DNA of 64,000 nucleotides from Terriglobia bacterium (GTDB lineage: Bacteria > Acidobacteriota > Terriglobia > JAIQFV01). Under the pieces are notes generated by a model that saw only the letters and a program-made list of their open reading frames with translations, was not told the DNA's origin and searched no databases. The stretch is from positions 14,544-78,543 of the forward strand of contig JAQUPQ010000014.1 of NCBI GenBank assembly GCA_028716525.1, given 5' to 3'. This document shows, piece after piece, positions 6,202-49,446 of the stretch. Both the position numbers and the translations under genes were made by a program. Within the stretch, counting starts at the first letter, position 1. The number at the start of each line of letters is the position of its first letter.

Positions 6202-7314
6202 GTGACGCCTTCAAAAGATCGAACTCCAATGAATAAGAATTTCACAGGTCAACTGTCATTTCTCGACCGCTATTTGACCGTTTGGATTTTTGCGGCCATG
6301 GTGGCCGGCGTAGCTGGAGGATGGCTGGTTCCCGGGATTGTACCCCTCCTCAATCGATTCAACGTCGGCACCACCTCCATCCCCATCGCCGTGGGTTTGA
6401 TCCTGATGATGTATCCGCCTCTAGCCAAAGTGCGCTACGAAAAGCTGGGCCAAGTATTCCGCAACAAGAAAATTCTGTTGTTGTCGTTGATTCAAAATTG
6501 GATTGTTGGACCGGTGCTTATGTTCGCGCTCGCCATCCTTTTTCTTCACCATTATCCCGATTACATGGCGGGGCTCATCATGATGGGTTTGGCGCGTTGT
6601 ATCGCCATGGTGATTGTATGGAATGAGTTGGCCAAGGGAGATACCGAATACGCCGCCGGCCTGGTGGCCTTTAATTCGGTCTTCCAGGTACTGTTCTATT
6701 CCGTTTACGCGTGGATTTTTGTCACCAAGCTGCCGGAATGGTTCGGCATGCACGGGTCGGTGGTCAACGTCTCCATCCGTGACATTGCCCACAGCGTTTT
6801 TATCTACCTGGGCATACCTTTCGTGGCGGGCATGATCACACGGTTTGGTCTGCTGCGGGCGCGGGGCAAGGAGTGGTACGAGCGGAAATTCATTCCGCAC
6901 ATCAGCCCCGTCACGCTGATCGCGTTGTTGTTCACCATCGTGGTGATGTTTTCGCTGAAGGGCGAGTACATTGTTCGCCTGCCGCTCGACGTGGTGCGCA
7001 TCGCCATTCCGCTCCTCATCTACTTTGTGGTGATGTTTCTGGTCTCGTTTTACATGGGCCACAGGCTGGGCGCGGATTATTCCCAGACGGCCACGCTTTC
7101 GTTTACGGCTGCCAGCAATAACTTTGAGTTGGCAATTGCTGTCGCGGTTTCGGTCTTTGGCATCAATTCCGGCGCAGCTTTTGCAGCCGTCATCGGTCCG
7201 CTCGTCGAGGTGCCGGTTCTGATCAGCTTGGTCAATGTGTCTTTGTATTTTCAGCGGAGGTTCTATCCCGGCGTCGCAGTTCAGCCCGAAGCGGTTTTGG
7301 CAAGCCATACTTAA
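6202..7314 (+). CDS. acr3: Arsenite efflux permease of the ACR3 family.
   Basis: It is a ten-transmembrane-segment protein that begins ...[28 protein letters not shown], which is an ACR3 hallmark. An alternative start is at 6229. Confidence 0.9.
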
Positions 7315-7737: not shown

Positions 7738-7765
7738 GTTCCCGCTGCTCCGAAAATATTATTCT

Positions 7766-8046
7766 GTCGTCCCGCGAAGCGGGACTAGAATCCAATCTCA
7801 ATCTTTTCCCCAGGCTTACGCCTGGGGCTAAAGATCTGGCGTCCTCCTGGCGGAGGACTTGTTGAATGTGGTCCAGCAAAGTTCCTCGAAGACAGTCGAA
7901 AGTCCTTTATTCGAGACGTAAGTCCAGCGTCGGTGGGGTTAGAAATAGATTAGTCCCGCCTTCCGGGACGGTAGACCTTTAGCCCAGCACGTCAGTGCTG
8001 GAGACGGTACGAGGGGAGGGCACCGAGTCCCGCTCCGCGGGACGAC
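7766..8046. repeat. Cluster of GC-rich hairpin modules. These include GTCCCGC-N3-GCGGGAC at both ends, CCCCAGGCTTACGCCTGGGG, GTCCTCCTGGCGGAGGAC and CCAGCACGTCAGTGCTGG.
   Basis: The palindromes are read directly. The same modules recur at 12.6, 22.0, 46.2-46.5 and 49.2-49.4 kb. Confidence 0.6.
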
Positions 8047-8245
8047 AGATACCTTTCGGGAGCAGGTAAGATAATCGTGCGAACAGAAGATGCTTGGATT
8101 TCTTTCGCCACGTCCGGCATGATCCAAAATGAAAACTGCTTGAGGTGAAATCTCCGCAGGGCATAGAATTCACCTGTCGCCAGTCGCGCCTGTGTTGGCC
8201 CCTGATGTTTTATCGACCGGGTGGCACGTGAGGCTTTCAAGTAAA

Positions 8246-8483
8246 CGATCCCATTCCATGAACTGACCAGCGCTGAAAAGGAGCAGAAGGCAGAGATCAT
8301 TACGCGCGTGAGCGCTTGCGCATTGCATCATCGTCTCGCCACGCGCCTGCTCGAGGATGGCTCCGAGACTTGTGCGGTGCAAGAGCTTCTGGGTCACAGG
8401 GATGTGAAGACCACGATCCGGCGCGGCCCAACTCATGCTTTGGATCGGGGAGGCAAGGGCGTGAAGAGTCTCGTGGACACGCT
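8246..8483 (+). pseudogene. C-terminal remnant of a tyrosine recombinase (integrase-like, IntI/Xer type). It is about 78 codons long and has no N-terminal part.
   Basis: The translation ...RVSACALHHRLATRLLEDGSETCAVQELLGHRDVKTTIRRGPTHALDRGGKGVKSLVDTL* matches the conserved HxLRHxFAT...LLGH.DV.TT..YTHV...GG.GV.SPLD box II region. The catalytic Tyr region is degenerate. An in-frame stop sits just upstream at about 8243. Confidence 0.5.
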
Positions 8484-8736
8484 GTGAAGGAAAAGGCGGA
8501 GGGTGTTATGCGGAAACCAAATAAGATGCAGGATCGAAACAGAATTGCCCCTAATCCGTTGACGAAAAAGGGATGCGTCACGTTTTCGATGAGGGTATTA
8601 TCAGGACGGAAAACCGGATAATGGTTTTATCTGGAAACCATATATTTAGAAGTTAGGCCATTGGCGACTTTTCATGAGCGACCAAATCCACAATGCAAAG
8701 AAGTGACGGAATCAACAGTCACGAAAGGAATCCTCT

Positions 8737-12594: not shown

Positions 12595-12906
12595 GCTCCC
12601 TGCGGGAGCTCGTTGTTGTAGGGTCGTCAGGGTCCTGAGGCTTACGCCTCAGGCTACGACTATTTCATCCCCCAATGGGGGATTTCATTTTCGTGAAAAT
12701 TTCTAATTGTGCTGAGAAAGAACGCACAGGGATATAAGAATGTTTTATCTTCCGGGGAGGAGATTCAACACAGAGGACATCGAAGTTACACAGTGAATTC
12801 CCCGGTTTTTTCCGAGGCAGTTGCTCATGCCCCGATGGATCGGGGCACCCAGGAGAATGAAAATCGTTCTGGAAGCCGGGATGCTCCGCTTTTTGGAGCA
12901 TCCCGG
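12595..12906. repeat. Cluster of GC-rich hairpin modules: GCTCCCTGCGGGAGC, CCTGAGGCTTACGCCTCAGG, CATCCCCCAATGGGGGAT(TTCAT), CCCCGATGGATCGGGG and CCGGGATGCTCCGCTTTTTGGAGCATCCCGG.
   Basis: The modules are shared nearly verbatim with 46.4-46.55 kb and 49.2-49.3 kb. Confidence 0.6.
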
Positions 12907-13114
12907 ATGTGCCATCGAATGCACGGTTGTAATCTTACAGCCCGCCTTGGCGGACGAAAGAAAACGATCGATGGGGTCATGGTTGTTTTTGGTCCAGCCC
13001 ACCCGGGCTTGAAGAAGGATCACACGCTCTGGCCTTCGTTGTCCGCTTCGTGGGATACTTCTAAAATATCTTGGCGGTCAAGGGCGCGCTCCTGCAATTG
13101 GAACGCGTGAATCC

Positions 13115-16836: not shown

Positions 16837-19305
16837 ATGGAGACCATCATTCAGGATGTTCGGCACGGTTTGCGACTCTTGCGGAAAAACCCCAGCTTCA
16901 CGTTGATTGCGATACTGACGCTGGCCTTGGGCATTGGCGCCAACACCGCCATTTTTACGGTGATCAATGCCGTTTTCTTACACCCTCTGGCCATCGAAGA
17001 TCCCTCTCGTGTGGTAGCGGTTTTCACCCACGACACGCACACCGTTCAGGCGGCCAATTTGAATCTCACTCCAAGTTCGCTTCCCAACTATGAGGATTTC
17101 CGCGATCAGAACACGGTTTTTTCGGGTCTCGCTGCTTTTTTCCCCACAGGAGTGCGATGGACGAACAACGGTGCCACAGTCGGTTTGCCCGCCATGATGA
17201 CCTCTGCCAATTATTTCGATGTTCTCGGCCTCAAACCGTTTCGTGGACGGTTTTTCTCAGCCGACGAGGACATCAAGAAAGCGGCCAATGTAGCCGTTCT
17301 CAGTTACAACTTGTGGATAAATAAATTCGGGGCTGATCCCAATCTCATCGGAAAGACCATCACACTAAACAATCTGCCCTTCACGGTGATAGGCGTGGCG
17401 CCGCAGGGATTCAAAAGCACGTTCTCGCTGGTGGGACCCGACTGGGTGTGGATGCCTCTCAGCATGCGCGATCAGCTGTTGACCGGTCCGCTGAAAACCG
17501 AGATGAACAATCGGCGCTTTCGATGGATCAACATTTTTGGCCGTTTGAAGCCCGGCGTCAGCTTGGCCCAGGCCCAGTCTTCCATGAAGATCATCGCGGC
17601 CTCTTTGGAAAAACAATTTCCCAGCTTCAATCAGGGCCGCACGGTGGAGCTCTCCGGCATTTCCGAGGCAGCCATGGGGATCAATCAACGCTCGCAATTT
17701 GTGCAGGCCGGTGTGGTGTTAATGGGAGTCGTGGGGCTGGTCTTGTTGACTGCTTGCGTCACCCTGGCCAATCTGCTGTTGGCGCAATCGGCTCAGCGTG
17801 AAAGAGAAATCAGTGTCCGGACCGCGATGGGCGCCAGCCGTGGCCGCCTTATCCGTCAGTTGCTGGTCGAAAGCATTACCCTGGCGGTATTGGGCGGGGG
17901 GGTCGGACTGTTGGTGGCATACTGGGGACGCAACGCGCTGTGGTCGTTCCGGCCGCCCTTTCTCCAGGCCGCTTCCATTGACTTGAGCTTTGATCCCAAG
18001 GTGCTGACCTTCACGGCGGTCATCTCGGTATTGACAGGAATTATCTTCGGATTGGCGCCGGCGTTAAAACTATCGCGTTCGAATTTGAATGAGATTTTGA
18101 AGCAGGGAGGGCGCAGCGGGTCGCTGGACCTCGGACACAACCGCATGCGGAGCTTGCTGGTGGTTTCCGAAATTGCGCTGGCCACGGTGGCGCTGGTCGG
18201 ATCGGGTCTTTTCATACGCAGCATGCAAGCTGCCCAGAACATGGATTTGGGATTTGACTCCAAGCACATCGGGTTCATGGGCTTGAATCCCGGAATCCAA
18301 AACTATGACCAGCCGCGAGGCGAACAGTTTTATCTCGATGCCATCGCCAAGGCACGGCTTGTTCCCGGAGTTCGAGCGGCCGCCGTTTCGCTGCTGGCCC
18401 CGCTGAATTTGAGTATCGAGTGGACCGTTTTTTCGGAAGGTGTACAACAGAACTCCGACTATCGAGGATCGTTGATTGCTTTCAATGATGTGACCCCTGG
18501 ATATTTCGATACCCTGCGCATTCCTTTCCGAAAGGGAAGAGACTTTACGGAGTTTGACCGGGATCCGGCCACGCCCATCGCCATCATTAACGAGGAAGTG
18601 GCCCGGCAGCTTTGGCCCGGCAAAGAAGCCTTGGGGAAACACTTCACGATTGTCAACCAAACGGCTCTCATCGAGGTGGTCGGCGTGGTCGCCGATTCCA
18701 CGATCGCAGCGATCGGCGAAGATCCGACGCCGATGATTTACCGTCCCATTCAGCAGGCTTACGTGCCGGGTGCCGCGTTGCTGGTGCGAACCGGAGGAGA
18801 TCCCGGAAAAGCATTGGGCGCAGTGCGCGAACAGGTCCAATCGCTCGACCGTCACATGCCGCTGCGAAATACAGGAACGGTGCAGGAAAATATTGAAGCC
18901 GGACTGTGGGCCCCTCGCATGGGTGCCGCGCTGCTCAGTATTTTTGGAGGCCTGGCAATGCTTTTGGCCCTGATTGGCGTGTACGGCGTGATGTCGTACT
19001 CGGTGGTACAGCGAACTCAAGAAATCGGCATCCGCATGGCGCTGGGCGCCAATGCCGCCGATTTGCTGCGGCTGGTCATCGGACAAGGAATGACTTTGGC
19101 AATGGTCGGATTAAGTGTGGGCGTTGTCGTGGCCTTTTCCGCGGCGCGATACATTTCCTCCCTGTTGTTCGGCATCAAGGCCAGTGATCCTGCGACCTAT
19201 GCCAGCGTGGCATTGTTATTTAGCTTGGTGGCTGTTATGGCGTGTTATGTCCCGGCGCGACGAGCGACGAAAGTCGATCCGCTGGTGGCGTTGCGGTATG
19301 AATGA
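16837..19305 (+). CDS. MacB-like ABC transporter permease: an FtsX-family, duplicated-permease protein with a MacB periplasmic core domain.
   Basis: It is 822 aa long. The N-terminal segment reads LRKNPSFTLIAILTLALGIGANTAIFTV. It has two FtsX modules and ends in the C-terminal motif CYVPARRATKVDPLVALRYE. Confidence 0.8.
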   Translation: METIIQDVRHGLRLLRKNPSFTLIAILTLALGIGANTAIFTVINAVFLHPLAIEDPSRVVAVFTHDTHTVQAANLNLTPSSLPNYEDFRDQNTVFSGLAAFFPTGVRWTNNGATVGLPAMMTSANYFDVLGLKPFRGRFFSADEDIKKAANVAVLSYNLWINKFGADPNLIGKTITLNNLPFTVIGVAPQGFKSTFSLVGPDWVWMPLSMRDQLLTGPLKTEMNNRRFRWINIFGRLKPGVSLAQAQSSMKIIAASLEKQFPSFNQGRTVELSGISEAAMGINQRSQFVQAGVVLMGVVGLVLLTACVTLANLLLAQSAQREREISVRTAMGASRGRLIRQLLVESITLAVLGGGVGLLVAYWGRNALWSFRPPFLQAASIDLSFDPKVLTFTAVISVLTGIIFGLAPALKLSRSNLNEILKQGGRSGSLDLGHNRMRSLLVVSEIALATVALVGSGLFIRSMQAAQNMDLGFDSKHIGFMGLNPGIQNYDQPRGEQFYLDAIAKARLVPGVRAAAVSLLAPLNLSIEWTVFSEGVQQNSDYRGSLIAFNDVTPGYFDTLRIPFRKGRDFTEFDRDPATPIAIINEEVARQLWPGKEALGKHFTIVNQTALIEVVGVVADSTIAAIGEDPTPMIYRPIQQAYVPGAALLVRTGGDPGKALGAVREQVQSLDRHMPLRNTGTVQENIEAGLWAPRMGAALLSIFGGLAMLLALIGVYGVMSYSVVQRTQEIGIRMALGANAADLLRLVIGQGMTLAMVGLSVGVVVAFSAARYISSLLFGIKASDPATYASVALLFSLVAVMACYVPARRATKVDPLVALRYE

Positions 19306-19306
19306 A

Positions 19307-19345
19307 AAGTGACAAGTGGCGAGTGACAAGTGGTTAGAAGTGGCC
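19307..19345. repeat. Short array of the motif (A)GTGACAAGTGG, followed by an imperfect hairpin, immediately after the first permease gene.
   Basis: The sequence AAAGTGACAAGTGGCGAGTGACAAGTGGTTAGAAGTGGCC is read directly. The same motif family occurs at 21829-21955 and 22298-22336. Confidence 0.4.
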
Positions 19346-19428
19346 TGCTGGATCTTGGATCCAGATTCTAGCCACTAACCTCTGACTTCTCAAAATCGAT
19401 CACTTCGGTCCAGTCCCCGGAGCAACTC

Positions 19429-21819
19429 ATGAACCCACTTTGGCAAGATTTTCGTTACGGAATTCGGATTCTAATCAAGTCGCCGGGCTTCCTGGCCATT
19501 GCAGTGTTTACGTTGGCCTTGGGCATTGGCGCCAACACCGCCTTATTTAGTGTCCTCAACACCTATTTGTTCCACTCGTTGCCTTATCCACGGTCTGACA
19601 GGTTGGTCCAAGTGTACCGGACCTCTCCGTTTTCACAAAGTTGGCCGCATTCGGCGGCGAACTTCTTGGATTTGAGCACAAAAAATAGTGTGCTTGAGGA
19701 AATGGCGGCGCTTCATTGGACGCAGCCTACACTGATCGAAAAAGGGGAATATGCGGAAAGCCTGAAAGGCTTAGAAGTCTCGGCTGGTTTTTTTCCGACC
19801 TTCGGTGTTCAGCCGGAGTTGGGACGCGTATTCACTCCCGAAGAAGATCGCCCCGGCCCGAACCTGGTGGCCGTTCTGAGTCATCGGTTCTGGCAACACC
19901 GATTCGGAGGCGATCCCAACATATTGGGAAGGATGCTTAAGCTGGATGGGGGGAGTGTGAAGGTGATCGGAGTGATGCCGCCGCAATTCGAGCAACCCCT
20001 TCTGTTTGGCAATGTGGATGTGTGGCGGCCGATTGATTTCAGCGCTGAGCGTCGGCAGAATCGCCACAATAATTATTTGAGTGCCATTGGACGATTGAAG
20101 CCGGGCGTGACGGTGGAGCAGGCCCAGGATTCCATGGTCAGGCTGTTCGCCGGGATTGCCAGCGCCAATTCCTCCAATCAAGGTGAGAGTCTCCGGCTCC
20201 AACCGTTGCAGCGATCCATGTCGGATGATCTCGGGCGCACCGTCATGTGGTACAGCTTCGGCCTCTCCGGATTCTTGCTGCTGATTGCTTGCGCCAATCT
20301 GGCCAATCTTCAGCTCGTGCGTTTGTCGGCGCGAACTCGTGAATATGGCGTGCGGGCGGCCTTGGGAGCGGGAAGGTTCCGTCTGGTGCGTCAATGTCTT
20401 ATCGAAAACCTGATTGTCGCGACTCTCGGCGGCGGGCTCAGTCTGTTAATTGCGGAATGGGGTGTTTCGTTTATCAGCCTGCGTCTATTCAGCGAGCTTC
20501 CGGGTGCTCAGATCGTGCTCGATTATCGCGTCTTTGGTTTCGCGATGCTGTGTTCGATGGTGACCGGCTTGATGTTCGGGACTGTACCCGCCTGGTTGTC
20601 GACCCGTCTCGACCTGAATCAGGTGTTAAAAGAGAATCTGCGCGGAGCGATCTCGGTTTCACACCATCGTTTGCGTCACGCGCTCATCATTGGCGAAGTG
20701 GCTTTGGCGTTGATCCTACTGGCGGGTGGGGGCTTGTTTCTGCGAGGTTTGCAACAATTTACCCAACACGATGCCGGCTGGCAAGTGGATGGCTTGTTGA
20801 CGGCACAAATCGGAATGCCCAAGGACACGAGTTTTTATCGGCAGCTCGAAGATCGGCTCCGCGCGATTCCGGGTGTCAAGCACGTGGCCCTTTCTGTTTC
20901 CTTGCCGGTTTGGGGATTCAACAGCAGCGGTGGGGGCAGGGCCGATGGACAACCGGAACCGAGACCCGGGCAATGGCCGGAGATTTTTTACGAGCCGGTA
21001 AGCCCAAGCTACTTTGAAACACTGGGAGTTCGCCTGATCGCCGGCCGTACCTTTAATGAATCGGATACCGCCAATAACGTGCCTGTTCTCATAGTCAACG
21101 AAAGGCTGGCGCGCCTTTTCTGGCCGCACGAAAGCGCCATCGGCAAACGTATCATGCCCCAGGGGGATACGAATTGGTGGGAAATCATCGGGGTCGTGAA
21201 CGACATGAGATTTCCAAGCCACATAGAAAAATCCTACACCGATCTTGAAGCCTTCCTACTCCTGGCGCAAGCTCCATTACATCAAGTCAACATCTTTCTG
21301 CGAACGTCTGTTCCTCCTGAGACCCTGGCCAATCAATTGCGTGGCGCAGTAGCGGCCCTCGACCCCAACCAGCCAGTTCAGCAAATTCGCACCGTGCGGA
21401 GTTGGGTTGATTTGGGACTCGGCAACATAACGCTTCTCGGCGCATTGCTCGGAGCCTTTGCGGTCCTCGGATTAGTGTTGGCTGCGGTGGGAATTTACGG
21501 GGTGATTTCCTATGCGGTGGCCCAACGGACCAATGAAATTGGGATTCGGATGGCACTGGGTGCGCCGCCAGGCATCTTGTTATGGCTGATTCTTAGCAAG
21601 GGGGCCCGCTTGGTCTTGTGGGGAACAGCGCTCGGTTATGGAGGCGCGTACGTTGTGGCGCGCTTGTTAATGGCAACTATTCCTACATTGCCGACACGAG
21701 ATCCACTGGCGCTGGCGGGAATCACCTTCGCCCTATTTGCCGTGGCCCTACTCGCTTGCTATCTCCCGGCGCGACGCGCCACCAAGGTTGATCCGATGGT
21801 GGCGCTGAGATATGAGTAG
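19429..21819 (+). CDS. MacB-like ABC transporter permease (FtsX-family duplicated permease), a tandem paralog of the upstream gene.
   Basis: It is 796 aa long. It starts MNPLWQDFRYGIRILIKSPGFLAIAVFTLALGIGANTALFSV and ends CYLPARRATKVDPMVALRYE. Confidence 0.8.
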   Translation: MNPLWQDFRYGIRILIKSPGFLAIAVFTLALGIGANTALFSVLNTYLFHSLPYPRSDRLVQVYRTSPFSQSWPHSAANFLDLSTKNSVLEEMAALHWTQPTLIEKGEYAESLKGLEVSAGFFPTFGVQPELGRVFTPEEDRPGPNLVAVLSHRFWQHRFGGDPNILGRMLKLDGGSVKVIGVMPPQFEQPLLFGNVDVWRPIDFSAERRQNRHNNYLSAIGRLKPGVTVEQAQDSMVRLFAGIASANSSNQGESLRLQPLQRSMSDDLGRTVMWYSFGLSGFLLLIACANLANLQLVRLSARTREYGVRAALGAGRFRLVRQCLIENLIVATLGGGLSLLIAEWGVSFISLRLFSELPGAQIVLDYRVFGFAMLCSMVTGLMFGTVPAWLSTRLDLNQVLKENLRGAISVSHHRLRHALIIGEVALALILLAGGGLFLRGLQQFTQHDAGWQVDGLLTAQIGMPKDTSFYRQLEDRLRAIPGVKHVALSVSLPVWGFNSSGGGRADGQPEPRPGQWPEIFYEPVSPSYFETLGVRLIAGRTFNESDTANNVPVLIVNERLARLFWPHESAIGKRIMPQGDTNWWEIIGVVNDMRFPSHIEKSYTDLEAFLLLAQAPLHQVNIFLRTSVPPETLANQLRGAVAALDPNQPVQQIRTVRSWVDLGLGNITLLGALLGAFAVLGLVLAAVGIYGVISYAVAQRTNEIGIRMALGAPPGILLWLILSKGARLVLWGTALGYGGAYVVARLLMATIPTLPTRDPLALAGITFALFAVALLACYLPARRATKVDPMVALRYE

Positions 21820-21828
21820 CAGGGGGCA

Positions 21829-22336
21829 GTGACAAGTGGTGAGTGAAGAGGAACCAGTGACGAGTGTGGAGTGACAAGTGACGAGAGAATAGTGATTAGT
21901 GGTTAGTGACCAGTGACAAGAGAACAGTGATCAGTGGTTAGTGACAAGTGGTTAGAGGCAGTTCTTCATGCGCCGATGGCTCGGGGACCCGAGAGCATGA
22001 AAATGATGAGGACCGATTCGGTTAGGCCCGGAGGGCCGGTTTGAGGGTAGCCCGCCCGCAGGGCGGGGCATTTCCCATCGCGAGGCGGAAATCATGCTGT
22101 GCAGGACGAATTTTGAATTTCGGTTTGCAAACACCGCAGCCGAGTCCCGATACGTCGGGACGAAGGCTGCGCTACCCAAACGACCACGGTTCCCCATTTT
22201 CGGAGCAGTGGTAATCGAACTTGGGCCAGAATGTTTTCATGCATCTGACGGATTTTTTCTTCTTCGCCCCGCAGCTCCATTCAGGTGGTTGAATTCTCTC
22301 GTCACTGGTCACTAACCACTGGTCACTAATCACTGC
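21829..22336. repeat. Composite MITE-like element. A left array of about 127 bp of GTGACAAGTG/TTAGTGACCAGTG motifs faces an inverted right array (GTCACTGGTCACTAACCACTGGTCACTAA). Between them lie about 340 bp containing hairpin modules of the dispersed repeat family.
   Basis: The arrays at 21829-21955 and 22298-22336 are read directly in opposite orientation. The internal hairpins (e.g. GCCCGCCCGCAGGGCGGGGC, and TTCTTCATGC...GCATGAAAA) are shared with 46.46-46.5 kb. The right end abuts the ROK gene stop. Confidence 0.4.
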
Positions 22337-23295
22337 ATGCTAAGAGCGGCAGCGCCGGCAATGCCGGCATCGGTTCCATATTTTGCTTTCACCAAAGGAA
22401 TCTCAGTGCACCGCGGATTGATGGACCACTGCGGCAATTGTTCTTGAATGCGTTTGAAGAATTCGCTCATTAACTCGCCTACGCCGCCTCCAACAACGAT
22501 GACATCCGGTTCCAGGATATCAATAACATTGCCGAGCCAAACGGTAAGCAGATCGGCACTTTCCTCCAAAACCTCTTTGGCCAAATCGTCCCCGCGGTGA
22601 AATGCGGCGCCGACATGTTCGGTGGTGATTTGGTCAACGCGCCCGGAAGCGAGCTCGATCAGCGTCTTTGCCCTGGGGTCCGATATTGCAATCTTGGATC
22701 GGGCTCTTGCCGCAATGGCGGGGCCGGAAGCCAGCGCTTCGATGCATCCTCGCTTTCCACAACCGCATTGGGGCCCGCGAAAGTCGATCGAAAGATGCCC
22801 GGCTTCTACGGCATTTCCGGTTCGCCCGCGATAAATTCGTTTTCCAAGAACAAGGCCCGTCCCGATGCCGGTTCCGATCGTGGCATAAAAGATATTTTGA
22901 TAATTTTGTCCTGCCCCCCAAATAGCCTCGGCCAGCGCCGCCGCATTGGCATCGTTATCGATCTTAGCCGTGATTCCAAAGGAACGTTGAATCTCCGCGG
23001 CCAAGGGAAAATTTCTCCAGCAAGGAAGGTTGGGCGGATTCACCACGACCCCTGTGTTTTGATCCAAAGGACCCGGAGAGCACACTCCAATCCCGTGGAG
23101 TTGGTCCCGGGCCGCAGGGTGGGCTTTGAAGACGGCCTCGATAGCTTCCCTGACGGAGGAAAAACCCTGAGCTGCAGTTCCAGTCACATTCATCAATGCT
23201 GCGGTTCGGAACAGGATTTTTCCGTTGGGGTCTATCAACCCCGCAGCCACTTTCGTGCCGCCAATGTCCACACCCAAAAATGCTTTTTCCGACAT
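22330..23295 (-). CDS. ROK-family sugar kinase (glucokinase/N-acetylhexosamine kinase-like).
   Basis: It has the N-terminal ATP-binding motif LGVDIGGTKVAAGL and the ROK zinc motif CGCGKRGCIEALASG. Confidence 0.8.
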   Translation of the reverse strand: MSEKAFLGVDIGGTKVAAGLIDPNGKILFRTAALMNVTGTAAQGFSSVREAIEAVFKAHPAARDQLHGIGVCSPGPLDQNTGVVVNPPNLPCWRNFPLAAEIQRSFGITAKIDNDANAAALAEAIWGAGQNYQNIFYATIGTGIGTGLVLGKRIYRGRTGNAVEAGHLSIDFRGPQCGCGKRGCIEALASGPAIAARARSKIAISDPRAKTLIELASGRVDQITTEHVGAAFHRGDDLAKEVLEESADLLTVWLGNVIDILEPDVIVVGGGVGELMSEFFKRIQEQLPQWSINPRCTEIPLVKAKYGTDAGIAGAAALSMQ

Positions 23296-44960: not shown

Positions 44961-45043
44961 GCCGATGATTAAGATGAGGCATAATGACGGCTGAGGTTGC
45001 ATGCAGCCCGCCGAAAAGAAAGATTGAATCCTTGGAGGTTGGA

Positions 45044-46054
45044 ATGAAATCCGGTGTTTCAAAGGTAATTTTTATCGCCATCTATATTTTAGGTTTTGGG
45101 TTAACACGGCTTTATGCCATTCAGGATCAAGCACGTCCCCCTATGATGCCCACGTCCATTCATGGACAAGTGCGCTTTTCCGAAGGTCAAATTCGGGCGG
45201 AGTATGTTTTGGTCCGTCTGGAACCCGTATCCGGTGGCATGACCGAAGAAACACGAACAGACCGTACGGGAAAATTTGATTTTTCAAACATTGGACAAGC
45301 CATCTATCGCGTTACAGCAACTTATCCGGGTTATATCCCTGCCACCCAGGAAGTAAATCTCGTGACGACTTTTACGGAGTACGTCCAGTTGACTCTCTTT
45401 CCGGAGAAGAAAGTAACGAAGCCGGTGAATAAGGCCGGCACTGAACTGTTGCTGGATGCAAAAGTCTCCAAAGAAGCGCGTGACGAATATGACAAAGGTC
45501 GCGAGGAATTGTCCAAAGGCTCCGAGCCCGGGAAAGGAATCGCTCATTTGGAAAAGGCCGTACAAATTGATCCCAATTTCCTGGAAGCGCAAGTTTTCCT
45601 GGGAACTTCTTATATTGACGCGCATGAGCTCGACAAAGCTCAAAAAGCCTTGCAAAAGGCATTGACCATCAATCCCAAAACCCCCTTGGCGTTGCTGGCA
45701 CTGGGAGAAGTGTATCGGGAAAAGAAGAATTTTCAGGAAGCGGAGAAGAATCTGACGGAGGGATTGAAACTTGACGATAACTCCTGGCAGGGACACTTTA
45801 CTTTGGGGAAGTTGTACTGGGATACGGGCAATACTCCCAAAGCCGGAGCGGAGATCGGCCGGACTCTGCAACTGAAACCGGATTACCCCGATGCTTATTT
45901 GATCGCCGGGAATATCTTTCTGAAAGCCAATCGCGCGCCTGAAGCCCTTCGAATGTTCAATGAATATTTGCGACTGGATCCCAAAGGAAAATTTGCCGAA
46001 CCCACGCGCCAATCCGTCGAGAAACTCAAGAAGGTCATGGCCGCACAAAAGTAG
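45044..46054 (+). CDS. Secreted or membrane-anchored protein with a CarbopepD_reg-like N-domain and TPR repeats.
   Basis: The N-terminal hydrophobic segment is followed by IHGQVRFSEGQIRAEYVLVRLEP...YRVTATYPGYIP. TPR-like helices then follow (AHLEKAVQIDPNFLEAQVFLGTSY..., ALLALGEVYREKKNFQEAEKNL...). Confidence 0.6.
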   Translation: MKSGVSKVIFIAIYILGFGLTRLYAIQDQARPPMMPTSIHGQVRFSEGQIRAEYVLVRLEPVSGGMTEETRTDRTGKFDFSNIGQAIYRVTATYPGYIPATQEVNLVTTFTEYVQLTLFPEKKVTKPVNKAGTELLLDAKVSKEARDEYDKGREELSKGSEPGKGIAHLEKAVQIDPNFLEAQVFLGTSYIDAHELDKAQKALQKALTINPKTPLALLALGEVYREKKNFQEAEKNLTEGLKLDDNSWQGHFTLGKLYWDTGNTPKAGAEIGRTLQLKPDYPDAYLIAGNIFLKANRAPEALRMFNEYLRLDPKGKFAEPTRQSVEKLKKVMAAQK

Positions 46055-46172
46055 TCTTGCCGTTGGGAGTGCGCTGAGGAAAAAATCAAATCAGCCCTGA
46101 TTCATGGGGCGACAAAAACCTCACAATCTCTGATTCGGCTGATCATCCTGTGTTTTTGGAAGTGCATCTGCC

Positions 46173-46548
46173 GTCCCGCAGTGCGGGACTCATCCCACCC
46201 CCTTCCGTTCTTTCCCGGCACTCACGTGCCGGGCTAAAGATCTAACGTCCGTCTTCGACGGACTATGTGAAGCTGATTTCTTGTTTTGTTTTTCCCCGCG
46301 AAGGACTAGCCCACGGATTCATTGACCCGCCGGGATTTCATGAAGGAAGTCCCGATGTACCTCATCGGGACGATAGATTTTTAGCCCCAGGCGTGAGCCT
46401 GGGGTATTGGAAGGAACGCGGTTTCAGTCCCGCTCTGCGGGACGGCAGACCGGCATTTTCGGAGCAGTTCTTCATGCAGCGTGGTCGCACCCAGTAGCAT
46501 GAAAATCGTTCTGGTAGCCGGGATGCTCCGCTTTTTGGAACATCCCGG
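46173..46548. repeat. Cluster of GC-rich hairpin modules from the same dispersed family: GTCCCGCAGTGCGGGAC, CCCGGCACTCACGTGCCGGG, GGCTAAAGATCTAACGTCC, CCCGATGTACCTCATCGGG, CCCCAGGCGTGAGCCTGGGG, GTCCCGCTCTGCGGGAC and CCGGGATGCTCCGCTTTTTGGAACATCCCGG.
   Basis: Modules are shared with 7.77-8.05 kb, 12.6-12.9 kb, 22.0 kb and 49.2-49.4 kb. This one contains a near-verbatim 65-bp match to 12848-12915. Confidence 0.6.
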
Positions 46549-46687
46549 ATGTGCGATCGACTCGGATTACCGCGAGGTCCGGCCCCGATGAATCGGGCGA
46601 TGCAAAAGTGAGGAAGTCATTTGCCGTTGAGCAGGGACGGCGAGGGGAGATCCAGACTAGCGATATGATAATGGACGGCCGGTAAAA

Positions 46688-46869
46688 AATTCCAAAGTCC
46701 AAAGGCCAAAATCCAAATAAAATCCAAATTCCAAAATTCAAACGGCCGAGTTCCGGAGGATCGCTTCGTCGGAGTCGCTTTTCTTGGAATTTGAAATTTA
46801 GGACCTGGAACTTACCTGAAATTTGGGTGTTGGAGCTTGGATTTTATTTGGATTTTGGACTTTGGAATT
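46688..46869. repeat. Long imperfect inverted repeat built from TCCAAA-rich arms of about 55 bp each, with a 60-bp centre. It begins 33 bp downstream of the GGDEF gene stop.
   Basis: The left arm is AATTCCAAAGTCCAAAGGCCAAAATCCAAATAAAATCCAAATTCCAAAATTCAAA. The right arm ...TTGGATTTTATTTGGATTTTGGACTTTGGAATT is its reverse complement apart from a 7-bp indel. Confidence 0.55.
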
Positions 46870-46901
46870 TACTCGCTGTCCGTCCCAAAATTTCGCCCAT
46901 T

Positions 46902-48497
46902 CTATTTCACTGCCAGAGTCGGAAAGACTCGGTTTCTTCCCGCCTGTTTGGCTGCATACAGGGCTTCGTCGGCGACACGAATTAGATCCACAGGGGACCG
47001 CGCGTCGTCGGGGTATGTTGAGACTCCCAGGCTGACGGTGGTGTGCAACGTGCCCTGTTTGTTGTAGTCCGAATAGTCGCGGTCCTGGATTCGACGCCGC
47101 AGTTTCTCGCCCACCGCCAAGGCATCGGGTTTTGAAACGTTCAAGAGAATCACGCTGAATTCCTCGCCCCCGTAGCGGGCCACAATGTCGATAGCCCGCA
47201 ACGATTCGGTCAACAGTTGGGACGTCTGCTTGAGAATCTCGTCGCCGTTCTGGTGTCCATGCAGATCGTTGACGGACTTGAAATGATCCAGGTCGATCAT
47301 GATAAACGAGCAGACATAGCCCAAACGTCCGGCCCGATGCAGTTCAATTTCAAGCTGCTCCATCAAAAAGCGATGGTTGTAGAGTCCTGTGAGGCCGTCA
47401 CGGTTGGCGCGGTCATGGATCTCGTCGACCCAGCGGGCATTGGCCAGCGCAATCGAGGCGTAATCCGCGACCGCCATCAGGACGCGTTCATCATTTTCAC
47501 TAAAGGCCTGCGGCCGATCACTCTGCACATCCAGGACGCCGAACACTTCCCCTTGCCGCCTCAAGGGAAGCGCCAGTTCCGACGCGATGGGATGCTCTGA
47601 AATCAGTTCTCCTGTCACATAGCGGGAATCCTTTTCCACGTCTGCCACATTGGCAATTTTGCCGTGAGTAGCGGTCCACACGGAAATGCCGGGACCGGTC
47701 AAGGAGAGCCGTATGGAGGGAGTCGCCTCGCGCGGACCGAATCCTTTTTGGGCCCGCATCACCAGCTCCTGGGAGGCCGGTTCCACCGTCCACAAAGAAC
47801 AATTGAGATAGCCAAATTTTTCCTGAATGATGGAGAGGATTTGATCCACTAATTTATCCACCACCAGAGTGGAGACCAGGGTCTTACCCATCTCCTGCAA
47901 AGCCGACACCTCTTTCATGGTGCTGATATGCCGTTCGCGCTGACGCTTGGTGCGTTCCATGACCAGACATGAGAAAACCATGACGAGGAAAAAGACCGTG
48001 ACGCGCACACCCTCGGCTTGAGTGTCGATTGGTTCCGTACCGTGTTGAGCTTCGTGGAGCAGGAGAGTCAAGTAAGAGATTACGAATAGAGAACTCATGA
48101 CGAGTCCGTCGCGCAGACCGACGAGGCTGACCATGAAAACAAAGGGCAGAAAAATGACGGTAAAGAGCAGACCTTGAGCCTGGTTGCCTGAAATGTGCAA
48201 GAAGTACGTCAACCACAGGATCGAGGTGAACACCGGTGTGTAGATGAAATGCGGGTCAAATGTCAGCTTCTCATCCCAGCGGAGCTGGAGCAGAAGAAGG
48301 AGGAAGAAAGTGTTGGCCAGGAAATAAATGGTGCATGAGATGATTTGGTTGGTGCGGACGGTGCTCAGATCCAGTCTTTGACACAGCCACAGCAACCCGA
48401 TCGCCAGCAGGTATCCCACAGCCGCCAACAGCACGCCGCGGCGCTTGGTTCGGCGACGGGTTTCAGATTGCAATTCGGTTTGTGAAGAAGGTGTCAT
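46902..48497 (-). CDS. Membrane-anchored GAF-GGDEF diguanylate cyclase.
   Basis: It has N-terminal transmembrane helices and a GAF-like segment, followed by a GGDEF domain with an intact RYGGEEF active site and an RxxD I-site-like motif. Confidence 0.85.
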   Translation of the reverse strand: MTPSSQTELQSETRRRTKRRGVLLAAVGYLLAIGLLWLCQRLDLSTVRTNQIISCTIYFLANTFFLLLLLQLRWDEKLTFDPHFIYTPVFTSILWLTYFLHISGNQAQGLLFTVIFLPFVFMVSLVGLRDGLVMSSLFVISYLTLLLHEAQHGTEPIDTQAEGVRVTVFFLVMVFSCLVMERTKRQRERHISTMKEVSALQEMGKTLVSTLVVDKLVDQILSIIQEKFGYLNCSLWTVEPASQELVMRAQKGFGPREATPSIRLSLTGPGISVWTATHGKIANVADVEKDSRYVTGELISEHPIASELALPLRRQGEVFGVLDVQSDRPQAFSENDERVLMAVADYASIALANARWVDEIHDRANRDGLTGLYNHRFLMEQLEIELHRAGRLGYVCSFIMIDLDHFKSVNDLHGHQNGDEILKQTSQLLTESLRAIDIVARYGGEEFSVILLNVSKPDALAVGEKLRRRIQDRDYSDYNKQGTLHTTVSLGVSTYPDDARSPVDLIRVADEALYAAKQAGRNRVFPTLAVK

Positions 48498-49218: not shown

Positions 49219-49446
49219 CCTGAGGCTTGCGCCTCAGGCTACTGGTATGCCATCCCCCCATGGGGGATTTCATCTTCGTGAAAATTGTTCATACCGCAAC
49301 CCGGGACCCCGCAAAGCTGCGGCATGAAAATTCGAAAATGCAACGGAAGCCCATCCAACGTCCCTGAAGGGGACGAATTCAACAGCCCAGTCTCCCGCGG
49401 GGGACTGGGTATGGAATCGGCACCACGTTCTAACCCTGAAGGGGTT
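49219..49446. repeat. Cluster of GC-rich hairpin modules: CCTGAGGCTTGCGCCTCAGG, CATCCCCCCATGGGGGATTTCAT-CTTCGTGAAAAT, CGTCCCTGAAGGGGACG, CCCAGTCTCCCGCGGGGGACTGGG and AACCCTGAAGGGGTT.
   Basis: The first about 70 bp are about 90% identical to 12634-12705. Confidence 0.6.

Follow-up and report, generated by a model that had tools for sequence, protein, structure and literature searches.

The STRR sequences of Calothrix and Nostoc are cyanobacterial heptamer repeats. Among the long simple sequence repeats (SSRs) of most prokaryotes, heptanucleotides are the most abundant class, and polymerase slippage has been proposed for them (Mrazek et al. 2007, as relayed in PMC4679880). Xanthomonas carries 70–75 inverted pairs of heptamer sites against 183–186 repeat patterns per genome, and these pairs form potential stem-loops for which no function has been established (PMC4692102). 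Here we analyze a long quasi-palindrome at positions 46682–46872 of a 64,000-nucleotide stretch from a Terriglobia bacterium of the Acidobacteriota (GenBank assembly GCA_028716525.1, contig JAQUPQ010000014.1, positions 14,544 to 78,543 of the forward strand; this whole stretch is the window), in the 3' untranslated region of a diguanylate cyclase gene with a GGDEF domain. We assign it to the paired inverted heptanucleotide repeats, which are known but poorly understood. Its two arms are opposed copies of a tandem-repeat module with a 7-base unit, and the whole is neither a classical terminator nor a transposon. A targeted literature search found no description of paired inverted heptanucleotide repeats in Acidobacteria.

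Like the GGGAATC-type inverted heptamers of Xanthomonas (Rehm et al. 2015, PMC4692102), the locus consists of degenerate intergenic 7-nt arrays, which usually range from a few to about 20 units, and these are closely paired on opposite strands with the potential to form a stem-loop. Length varies among related genomes in Xanthomonas, and here it does so in other arrays of the clade. They differ in unit, which here is the A/T-rich TTTGGAN, and in host, which here is an acidobacterium. No TTTGGAN unit has a G-tract (there is a single GGG, at 46825–46827), so the unit lacks G-quadruplex potential and lies outside the G-quadruplex heptamer subclass (GGGAATC/GGGGAYT). The Xanthomonas study followed a single GGGAATC-type family, whereas the Acidobacteriia clade of the window has many units, some of them chained into a composite. 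REP sequences are short imperfect palindromes linked to the RAYT transposase, and REP hairpins stabilize upstream mRNA. REPINs and REP doublets resemble the locus in that two inverted copies of a short dispersed intergenic repeat surround a short spacer and form a hairpin, but the unit of the present palindrome is a tandem array, not a REP palindrome.

Other heptamer systems share the period but not the pairing. Prokaryotic long SSRs, including those of cyanobacteria, resemble the locus in their period of 7, intergenic position and sporadic phylogenetic distribution, and their indels in multiples of the unit between close strains are matched by other arrays of the clade; in the accounts given in PMC4679880 and PMC4692102 they are mostly described as single direct arrays, in contrast to the inverted pairing and 190-nt hairpin found here. 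The TAACTGA heptamers of Beggiatoaceae and cyanobacteria are likewise abundant intergenic arrays, sometimes lying over stop codons, in distant phyla (PMC4679880). Their unit is different, however, and nearly all are direct and point to a downstream start codon, with one inverted case in 170 sets.

The quasi-palindrome, with GTAAA/TTTAC at its foot, makes a total hairpin of about 190 nt. Only 8 inverted repeats in the whole window reach 22 nt with a partner within 400 nt, and this one is the longest. The best ungapped arms returned by the repeat finder, 46694–46742 and 46822–46870, are 49 nt each, 86% complementary and 79 nt apart. With one 7-nt bulge (GGCCAAA, 46704–46710), pairing grows to 46687–46742 against 46822–46870, or 56 against 49 nt. 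The original prediction, which had described arms of about 55 bp that match apart from one 7-bp indel and lie 33 bp past the diguanylate cyclase stop, is thus borne out in its measurements: the difference is GGCCAAA, and the distance is 32–33 nt. GC content at the palindrome is 39–43%, compared with 54% window-wide. Within the window an arm 21-mer is found in the two arms only, with a chance expectation of 0.00, and the only other copy retrieved for the locus, on a 2.7-kb Logan contig (L001), is identical to the window.

Folding, proposed alongside the prediction as a check on the long imperfect hairpin, confirms it together with the arms and their complementarity. The RNA of the plus strand folds with −77.0 kcal/mol (z −6.6), that of the minus strand with −65.8 kcal/mol (z −5.7), and the single-stranded DNA with −42.3 kcal/mol (z −5.9). 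The z-scores come from 200 shuffles per molecule, and 0 of 200 reached the palindrome's energy in any of the three. The fold energies are strong, and any transcript that crosses the element would form a very stable hairpin.

Decomposition of the arms into units reveals what the hairpin is made of. Tandem Repeats Finder gives a period of 7 in both arms, with 8.4 copies in the left and 7.4 in the right. The left arm (46682–46742) comprises GTAAA, an A3 bulge and 8 degenerate heptamers that read NNCCAAA on the plus strand and TTTGGAN on the minus strand. Its units are TT CCAAA, GT CCAAA, GG CCAAA, AT CCAAA, TAAAAT CCAAA, TT CCAAA and AT TCAAA, among which is an irregular 11-nt unit, AAATAAAATCC. 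The right arm (46822–46872), 7 heptamers of the form TTTGGAN followed by TTTAC, is the complement of the left arm less one unit. The extra heptamer GGCCAAA at 46704–46710 occurs in the left arm only, both in the unit decomposition and as a 7-nt bulge in minimum free energy structures. The period and the decomposition together identify the arms as heptanucleotide tandem arrays and the 7-bp indel as exactly one repeat unit. The earlier description of the arms as TCCAAA/TTTGGA repeats was correct as to repetition, but the class of 7-nt tandem repeats had gone unrecognized. As in other paired inverted heptanucleotide SSRs, there are at least 4 tandem 7-nt units, the arrays are paired on opposite strands, and the position is intergenic; the open reading frames (ORFs) that overlap the arms have no Pfam match.

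The interior between the well-matched arms (46743–46821) has two parts. Positions 46743–46783 are GC-richer and non-repetitive, with one small local hairpin, and 46784–46821 hold about five decayed heptamers (TTGGAAT, TTGAAAT, TTAGGAC, CTGGAAC, TT..) that run on into the right arm. Rfam gives nothing at the gathering threshold in the whole window, and the Acido-Lenti-1 covariance model (RF01687) has no match on 46682–46872. In a search by E-value, the sole match of the palindrome, to the plant miRNA precursor MIR8562, was rejected as spurious (33 bits against a 211-bit cut-off). A comparison with SARP-type heptamer sites at 11-bp spacing and with A-tract bending was also dropped, as only two units are 11 nt long and a 7-nt period runs out of helix phase.

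The origin of the arms is suggested by a dispersed repeat in a related genome. Three contigs, L208, L209 and L210, carry a composite repeat; they come from a genome in which the GGDEF ortholog shares 66% identity with that of the window. At least 4 copies lie within 21.6 kb of L208 (4793–5128, 9534–9888, 16491–16816 and 19267–19627) and align over about 370 columns. The composite consists, in order, of (CAGTTKY)n or (GGTGTCA)n, a long purine-rich (GAAGTCR)n array, a non-repetitive core of about 26 nt, (CTTTGAA)n, and a terminal (TTTGGAN)n array. An nhmmer search of the window with the composite profile matches the left arm at 46753–46687 on the minus strand (E 2.6e-6), and on the right side the alignment covers 46784–46870.

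The right arm and the terminal array of the third copy (c3, L208 16734–16782) are identical at 44 of 49 positions, a match that takes in the irregular TTTA unit as well as the order in which the variable bases follow one another. The next-best match to the right arm, among 119 listed loci chosen for the TTTGGAN/CCAAANN unit, is 38/49, and the two arms of the window agree with each other at 42/49. Because the right arm resembles c3 more closely than it resembles the left arm, the complementarity of the arms is better explained by two opposed copies of a module than by recent hairpin-templated homogenization. Moreover, a 15-nt signature, TTGGAnTTTATTTGG, occurs among 214 loci only in both window arms and in the L208/L209 copies c3 and c4. 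With the right arm 90% identical to the composite's terminal array, we interpret the palindrome as two copies of a dispersed module lying head to head. A scan of viral contigs for the arm signature gave 0 matches.

Composite repeats were also observed in L209, L210, L211 and L204 (9726–9888). Three of the four L208 copies run from the upstream stop codon and occupy most or all of the spacer, and the fourth comes after a hairpin that resembles a terminator. Where the orientation is unambiguous, in two cases, the composite runs in the direction of transcription.

Heptamer arrays of this kind occur in several phyla, and many of them are paired. A scan of a genome collection for (CCAAANN)x4 returned at least 119 loci, and the matches listed include Cyanobacteria (with loci of Nostoc, Dolichospermum and Nodularia), Acidobacteriota, Bacteroidota, Verrucomicrobiota, Chloroflexota and others. 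These listed loci hold 274 period-7 arrays, compared with 2 in shuffled sequence. An inverted partner lies within 400 nt of 82 of the 274, above the 99th percentile of shuffled flanks; the 82 amount to 59 distinct hairpins, whose units vary from locus to locus. The acidobacterial arrays among them stand directly past stop codons and often fill the entire spacer, and a test of gene context (convergent, tandem or divergent), based on crude ORF calls, gave a weak preference for 3' ends. One observed variant, in a member of the Pyrinomonadaceae (L055, 4150–4370), is a nested hairpin with arms of 77 nt, outer TGAATNG arrays and inner TTTGGTC/GACCAAA arrays, which occupies the entire spacer between two genes.

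Paired inverted heptamer arrays are unusually dense in the Acidobacteriia clade from which the window derives. Per 21.6 kb there are 7 arrays in L204, 13 in L208 and 6 in L211, compared with 11 in 478 kb of assorted metagenome contigs, a control scored at a slightly stricter threshold than the relatives. Comparison of near-identical genomes shows how these arrays change. Over 21.6 kb, L204 and L205 share 99.88% identity with a single gap, of 21 nt or three units, in an array at 6798–6894. L211 and L212 are 100% and 99.99% identical, and their sole difference is a 63-nt indel (3 x 21 nt) in an array at 6962–7072. Both indels fall in the spacer between the TPR and ABC genes, which is 3 nt long in L208 and in L204 and L211 contains arrays of about 300 nt in all. 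At orthologous positions, arrays differ strongly between species or are absent. Taken together, the indels and the spacer differences demonstrate whole-unit slippage and rapid turnover in this clade.

The genes around the palindrome place it at a break in gene order. The GAF-GGDEF diguanylate cyclase gene (46902–48497, minus strand; Pfam GAF and GGDEF) and the other neighbor, a gene for a CarboxypepD_reg/TPR protein (44984–46054, plus strand), are convergent across an 850-bp spacer. Orthologs of the GGDEF protein at 66–79% identity lie at loci L202–L214, where the upstream order of a ~310-aa gene, the TPR gene and ABC transporter genes is kept. Directly past GGDEF, the relatives have a gene of 457–472 aa or an amino-acid permease. 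The window instead has a repeat-filled spacer followed by TonB-receptor/TPR genes, so that the order breaks right at the GGDEF stop. Past GGDEF orthologs at 66–72% identity the palindrome is absent, and with the downstream order changed, it is lineage-specific and sits exactly at the synteny break. A metagenome scan with the GGDEF protein found paralogs at no more than 49% identity and no orthologous locus, and an exact look-up of the protein of the TPR neighbor gave nothing. Four metagenomic contigs (L201, L202, L206 and L214) end 10–170 nt past the stop of the GGDEF ortholog, ends that may reflect assembly breaks at repeats.

The reading that we favor, with moderate confidence, is that the palindrome is a head-to-head pair of TTTGGAN arrays that derives from a module, has been altered by slippage, is specific to its lineage and has an incidental effect on an mRNA 3' end. 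The element would thus be an intergenic heptanucleotide SSR in its paired inverted form. Both arms would have been copied from one module, the same that serves as the composite's terminal array in the related genome, and the opposite orientation of the two copies would have given rise to the complementarity of the arms. Later slippage by whole units would have shifted the copy number; the arms are now one unit apart in length, and other arrays of the same clade show indels of whole units. The element would be confined to its lineage, at the site of a rearrangement of gene order.

For the GGDEF mRNA, the arms would form a long AU-rich hairpin of about 190 nt, some 30 nt past the stop codon and followed by U6. 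Such a hairpin would most likely define or protect the 3' end of the message, whether through intrinsic termination, albeit weak, or by blocking 3' exonucleases; it would also reduce collisions with convergent transcription. The need for a new GGDEF 3' end may have arisen once the rearrangement had removed the gene that followed. In Escherichia coli, hairpins without strong U-tracts have been read as stabilizing processed 3' ends, as outlined in PMC12642595. A role as terminator or 3' stabilizer for GGDEF is plausible in view of the T6 that comes after the predicted hairpin. Nevertheless, the repeat is in our view selfish or driven by mutation, with the effect on the mRNA a by-product and not the reason for its existence, and ending or protecting the GGDEF mRNA would probably be a side role at most.

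Several observations weigh against this reading. Some 50 nt of low-complexity sequence carry the homology to the L208 module, and the composite profile scores unrelated TTTGGAC arrays equally well. The 64-kb window has no other copy of the arm module and no other composite module. Neither a target-site duplication nor an insertion boundary can be resolved, the filled and empty spacers of L208 and L207 being too diverged. The class as a whole is also unhelpful to a function in RNA: among its 59 hairpins, none of 35 tails within 150 nt past gene ends has a U-tract (at least 5 U in 8; the mean is 1.9 U in 8), and mismatches show no sense-strand bias of G·U over A·C (22 vs 29, p = 0.40). The lack of U-tracts and of wobble bias argues against a selected RNA role.

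These class-wide results bear most directly on the proposal that the palindrome is a selected factor-independent terminator, possibly bidirectional, between the convergent GGDEF and TPR/CarboxypepD_reg units, an explanation that we consider unlikely. It draws on the position of the palindrome as the first structure past the GGDEF stop, 33 nt off, on the great stability of the hairpin on both strands, and on the T6 at its 3' foot on the GGDEF strand; a simple scan found no other terminator-like minus-strand site in 45900–47000. As in a Rho-independent terminator, the hairpin is just past the stop codon and a T-run comes next on the sense strand. The T-run (46684–46689, minus strand) lies at or after the 3' arm of the hairpin and is the sole terminator-like tail, but it is partly within the stem, as 3 of its 6 bases can pair with AAA of the opposite arm. 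In the minimum free energy structure of the GGDEF 3' region (a 250-nt fold), T6 lies in an internal loop between the main stem and an outer 6-bp GGACGG/CCGUCC helix, in which GGACGG at 46673–46678 pairs with CCGTCC at 46880–46885.

The stem itself also departs from the terminator pattern. It is AU-rich even at its base, exceeds 50 bp, is bulged and encloses a 79-nt interior, unlike the short GC-rich stem and small loop of a classical terminator, and a consensus terminator scan did not call the palindrome. The plus strand offers just UUU past the hairpin, and the plus-strand gene ends at 46054, 630 nt upstream, so that a terminator-like GC hairpin at 46349–46371 comes first. Orthologous GGDEF genes do without the hairpin and have the next gene directly after. 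The suggestion of a strong bidirectional terminator is not supported as it stands, in view of the AU-rich stem, the large interior, a T6 on the minus strand only, class tails that lack U-tracts, and the absence of strand-specific wobble bias.

A purely local origin is given about the same low probability. Here the palindrome would have arisen by slippage expansion and intra-strand template switching (quasi-palindrome correction), unrelated to repeats elsewhere. Template switching creates and maintains hairpins (PMC8794818, PMC7202029), the arms are one unit apart, near-identical genomes differ by whole-unit indels, and most hairpins of the class have a unit of their own. A local origin would be possible if the L208 match is convergent. 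It does not readily accommodate arms that resemble each other less than the right arm resembles a copy from another genome, nor the irregular TTTA unit and variable-base order held in common with L208 c3 and c4, and the relative's dispersed family includes a non-repetitive core.

Descent from a shared module could also be pressed further than in the reading that we favor. In a more tentative proposal, somewhat less likely than the two preceding alternatives, the palindrome would be a doublet of a conserved module from an undescribed kind of dispersed element, in which composites of heptamer arrays spread through the Acidobacteriia and fill spacers from a stop codon to the next gene. Their identity of about 90% across genera would be due either to active mobilization or to a post-transcriptional function of the transcribed GGA-rich arrays, as a binding platform or as a hairpin.

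A more specific form of mobility, a foldback miniature inverted-repeat transposable element (MITE) mobilized in trans by a transposase, appears improbable. The long inverted arms do constitute terminal inverted repeats, albeit low-complexity arrays, the site is a repeat-crowded intergenic region at a synteny break, and a homologous module is dispersed in a relative. However, no direct repeat is common to the two flanks, CCGGTAAA.. and ..ACTCGCTG, and there is no target-site duplication. The spacer and the whole element each occur just once in the 64-kb window, and neither recurs in 1.43 Mb of fetched loci. In the composite repeat, terminal inverted repeats are lacking and folding is no stronger than in shuffled sequence (z −0.9 and +2.8). 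Slippage makes the length of the arms, which are low-complexity arrays, drift, and the window contains just one trace of a recombinase, a fragment of a tyrosine recombinase 38 kb off. What survives of the MITE suggested in the original prediction is that the arms copy a module dispersed in a related genome; the duplicated target site, a second copy of spacer or whole element, and a link to a transposase do not. The search for further copies, also proposed there, had the same divided outcome, with no second whole element in the window or the fetched loci but with the arm module recurring in L208/L209.

Still less probable is an element acting at the DNA level, a hairpin or cruciform at which replication would pause or recombination would be promoted, and which itself would have caused the local rearrangement. 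The single-stranded DNA folds strongly (−42 kcal/mol, z −5.9), and it is exactly downstream of GGDEF that gene order departs from that of every relative sampled. Cruciform extrusion requires near-perfect arms and a very short spacer, so that arms 86% complementary around a 79-nt spacer are unfavorable, and with several repeat families in the 850-bp spacer between the genes, the breakpoint could be marked by any one of them. Least probable of all is a protein-binding array or small RNA, for example GGA units that titrate a CsrA-like protein or one heptamer per OB-fold protein, for although GGA recurs every 7 nt in TTTGGAN arrays and again in the composite's purine-rich arrays, and cold-shock proteins bind heptamer repeats (discussed in PMC4679880), the GGA motifs of the palindrome are base-paired, no Rfam family matches beyond the spurious plant miRNA precursor and the position is not conserved; a protein-binding role of the GGA repeats is speculation.

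The palindrome is one of several paired arrays in the window. About 20 units of the form NAGTGRN (21820–21957) begin directly past the stop of a MacB/FtsX-type permease gene (19429–21819), and their inverted partner (22294–22334) ends on the stop codon of a ROK gene (22330–23295, minus strand). The best-matching arms of this pair are separated by 369 nt, an interior in which GC-rich hairpins and copies of a 'GCAGTTCTTCATGC...GCATGAAAAT' motif were observed, as if other repeats had been inserted into the loop of a heptamer hairpin. An AGTG-type heptamer hairpin (19307–19400; z −3.2 and −3.3) directly follows the stop of a paralogous permease gene (16837–19305). With the loci at 46682, 21820 and 19307, three intergenic regions of the window thus have paired inverted heptamer arrays, built from two unrelated units.

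Besides the palindrome, the 850-bp spacer is a patchwork of other repeat families, some of which recur elsewhere in the window. Two GC-rich elements of about 285 bp, at 7763–8049 and 46167–46449, have 24-nt terminal inverted hairpins (TCTGYCGTCCCGC..GCGGGACT), and each encloses an inverted pair of motifs with sub-threshold matches to Acido-Lenti-1. Their internal hairpins, judged by reading of the sequences, differ from each other yet stay paired. The Acido-Lenti-1 matches, of 28–33 bits against a cut-off of 37, occur only at 46214, 46348, 7808, 7952, 12634 and 49219; those at 12634–12684 and 49219–49269 are single motifs. The arms of the palindrome are unrelated to this GC-rich hairpin family, the distinction that had been drawn from the start, and the sub-threshold matches are found only in the latter. 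A further repeat family, at 46455–46560, 12810–12918, 21955–22003 and 22197–22245, has the order GCAGTTCTTCATGC, a variable hairpin, GCATGAAAATCGTTCTGG and a hairpin CCGGGATGCTCCGCTTTTTGGARCATCCCGG; its 74-nt repeat at 46487–46560 is 93% identical to 12845–12918. The tyrosine-recombinase trace is a C-terminal fragment at 8250–8490 on the plus strand (..ELLGHRDVKTT..GGKGV..; Pfam Phage_integrase, 31 bits) with no intact ORF, and it adjoins the GC-rich element at 7763–8049.

Heptanucleotide arrays pose the questions of why the unit has seven bases and what the arrays do. The clade described here is a tractable case, as it combines many units, frequent inverted pairing, whole-unit polymorphism in 99.9%-identical genomes and one module found across genera. 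For the GGDEF gene itself the significance is modest: a 3' end that is probably defined by a hairpin and would have been gained after a rearrangement removed the gene that follows in relatives. The most interesting aspect of the palindrome is its link to the composite dispersed repeat. If such arrays are mobile or shape mRNA 3' ends, this would bear on the annotation of Acidobacteria, in which terminators are poorly known, and would also explain why metagenome assemblies break at them.

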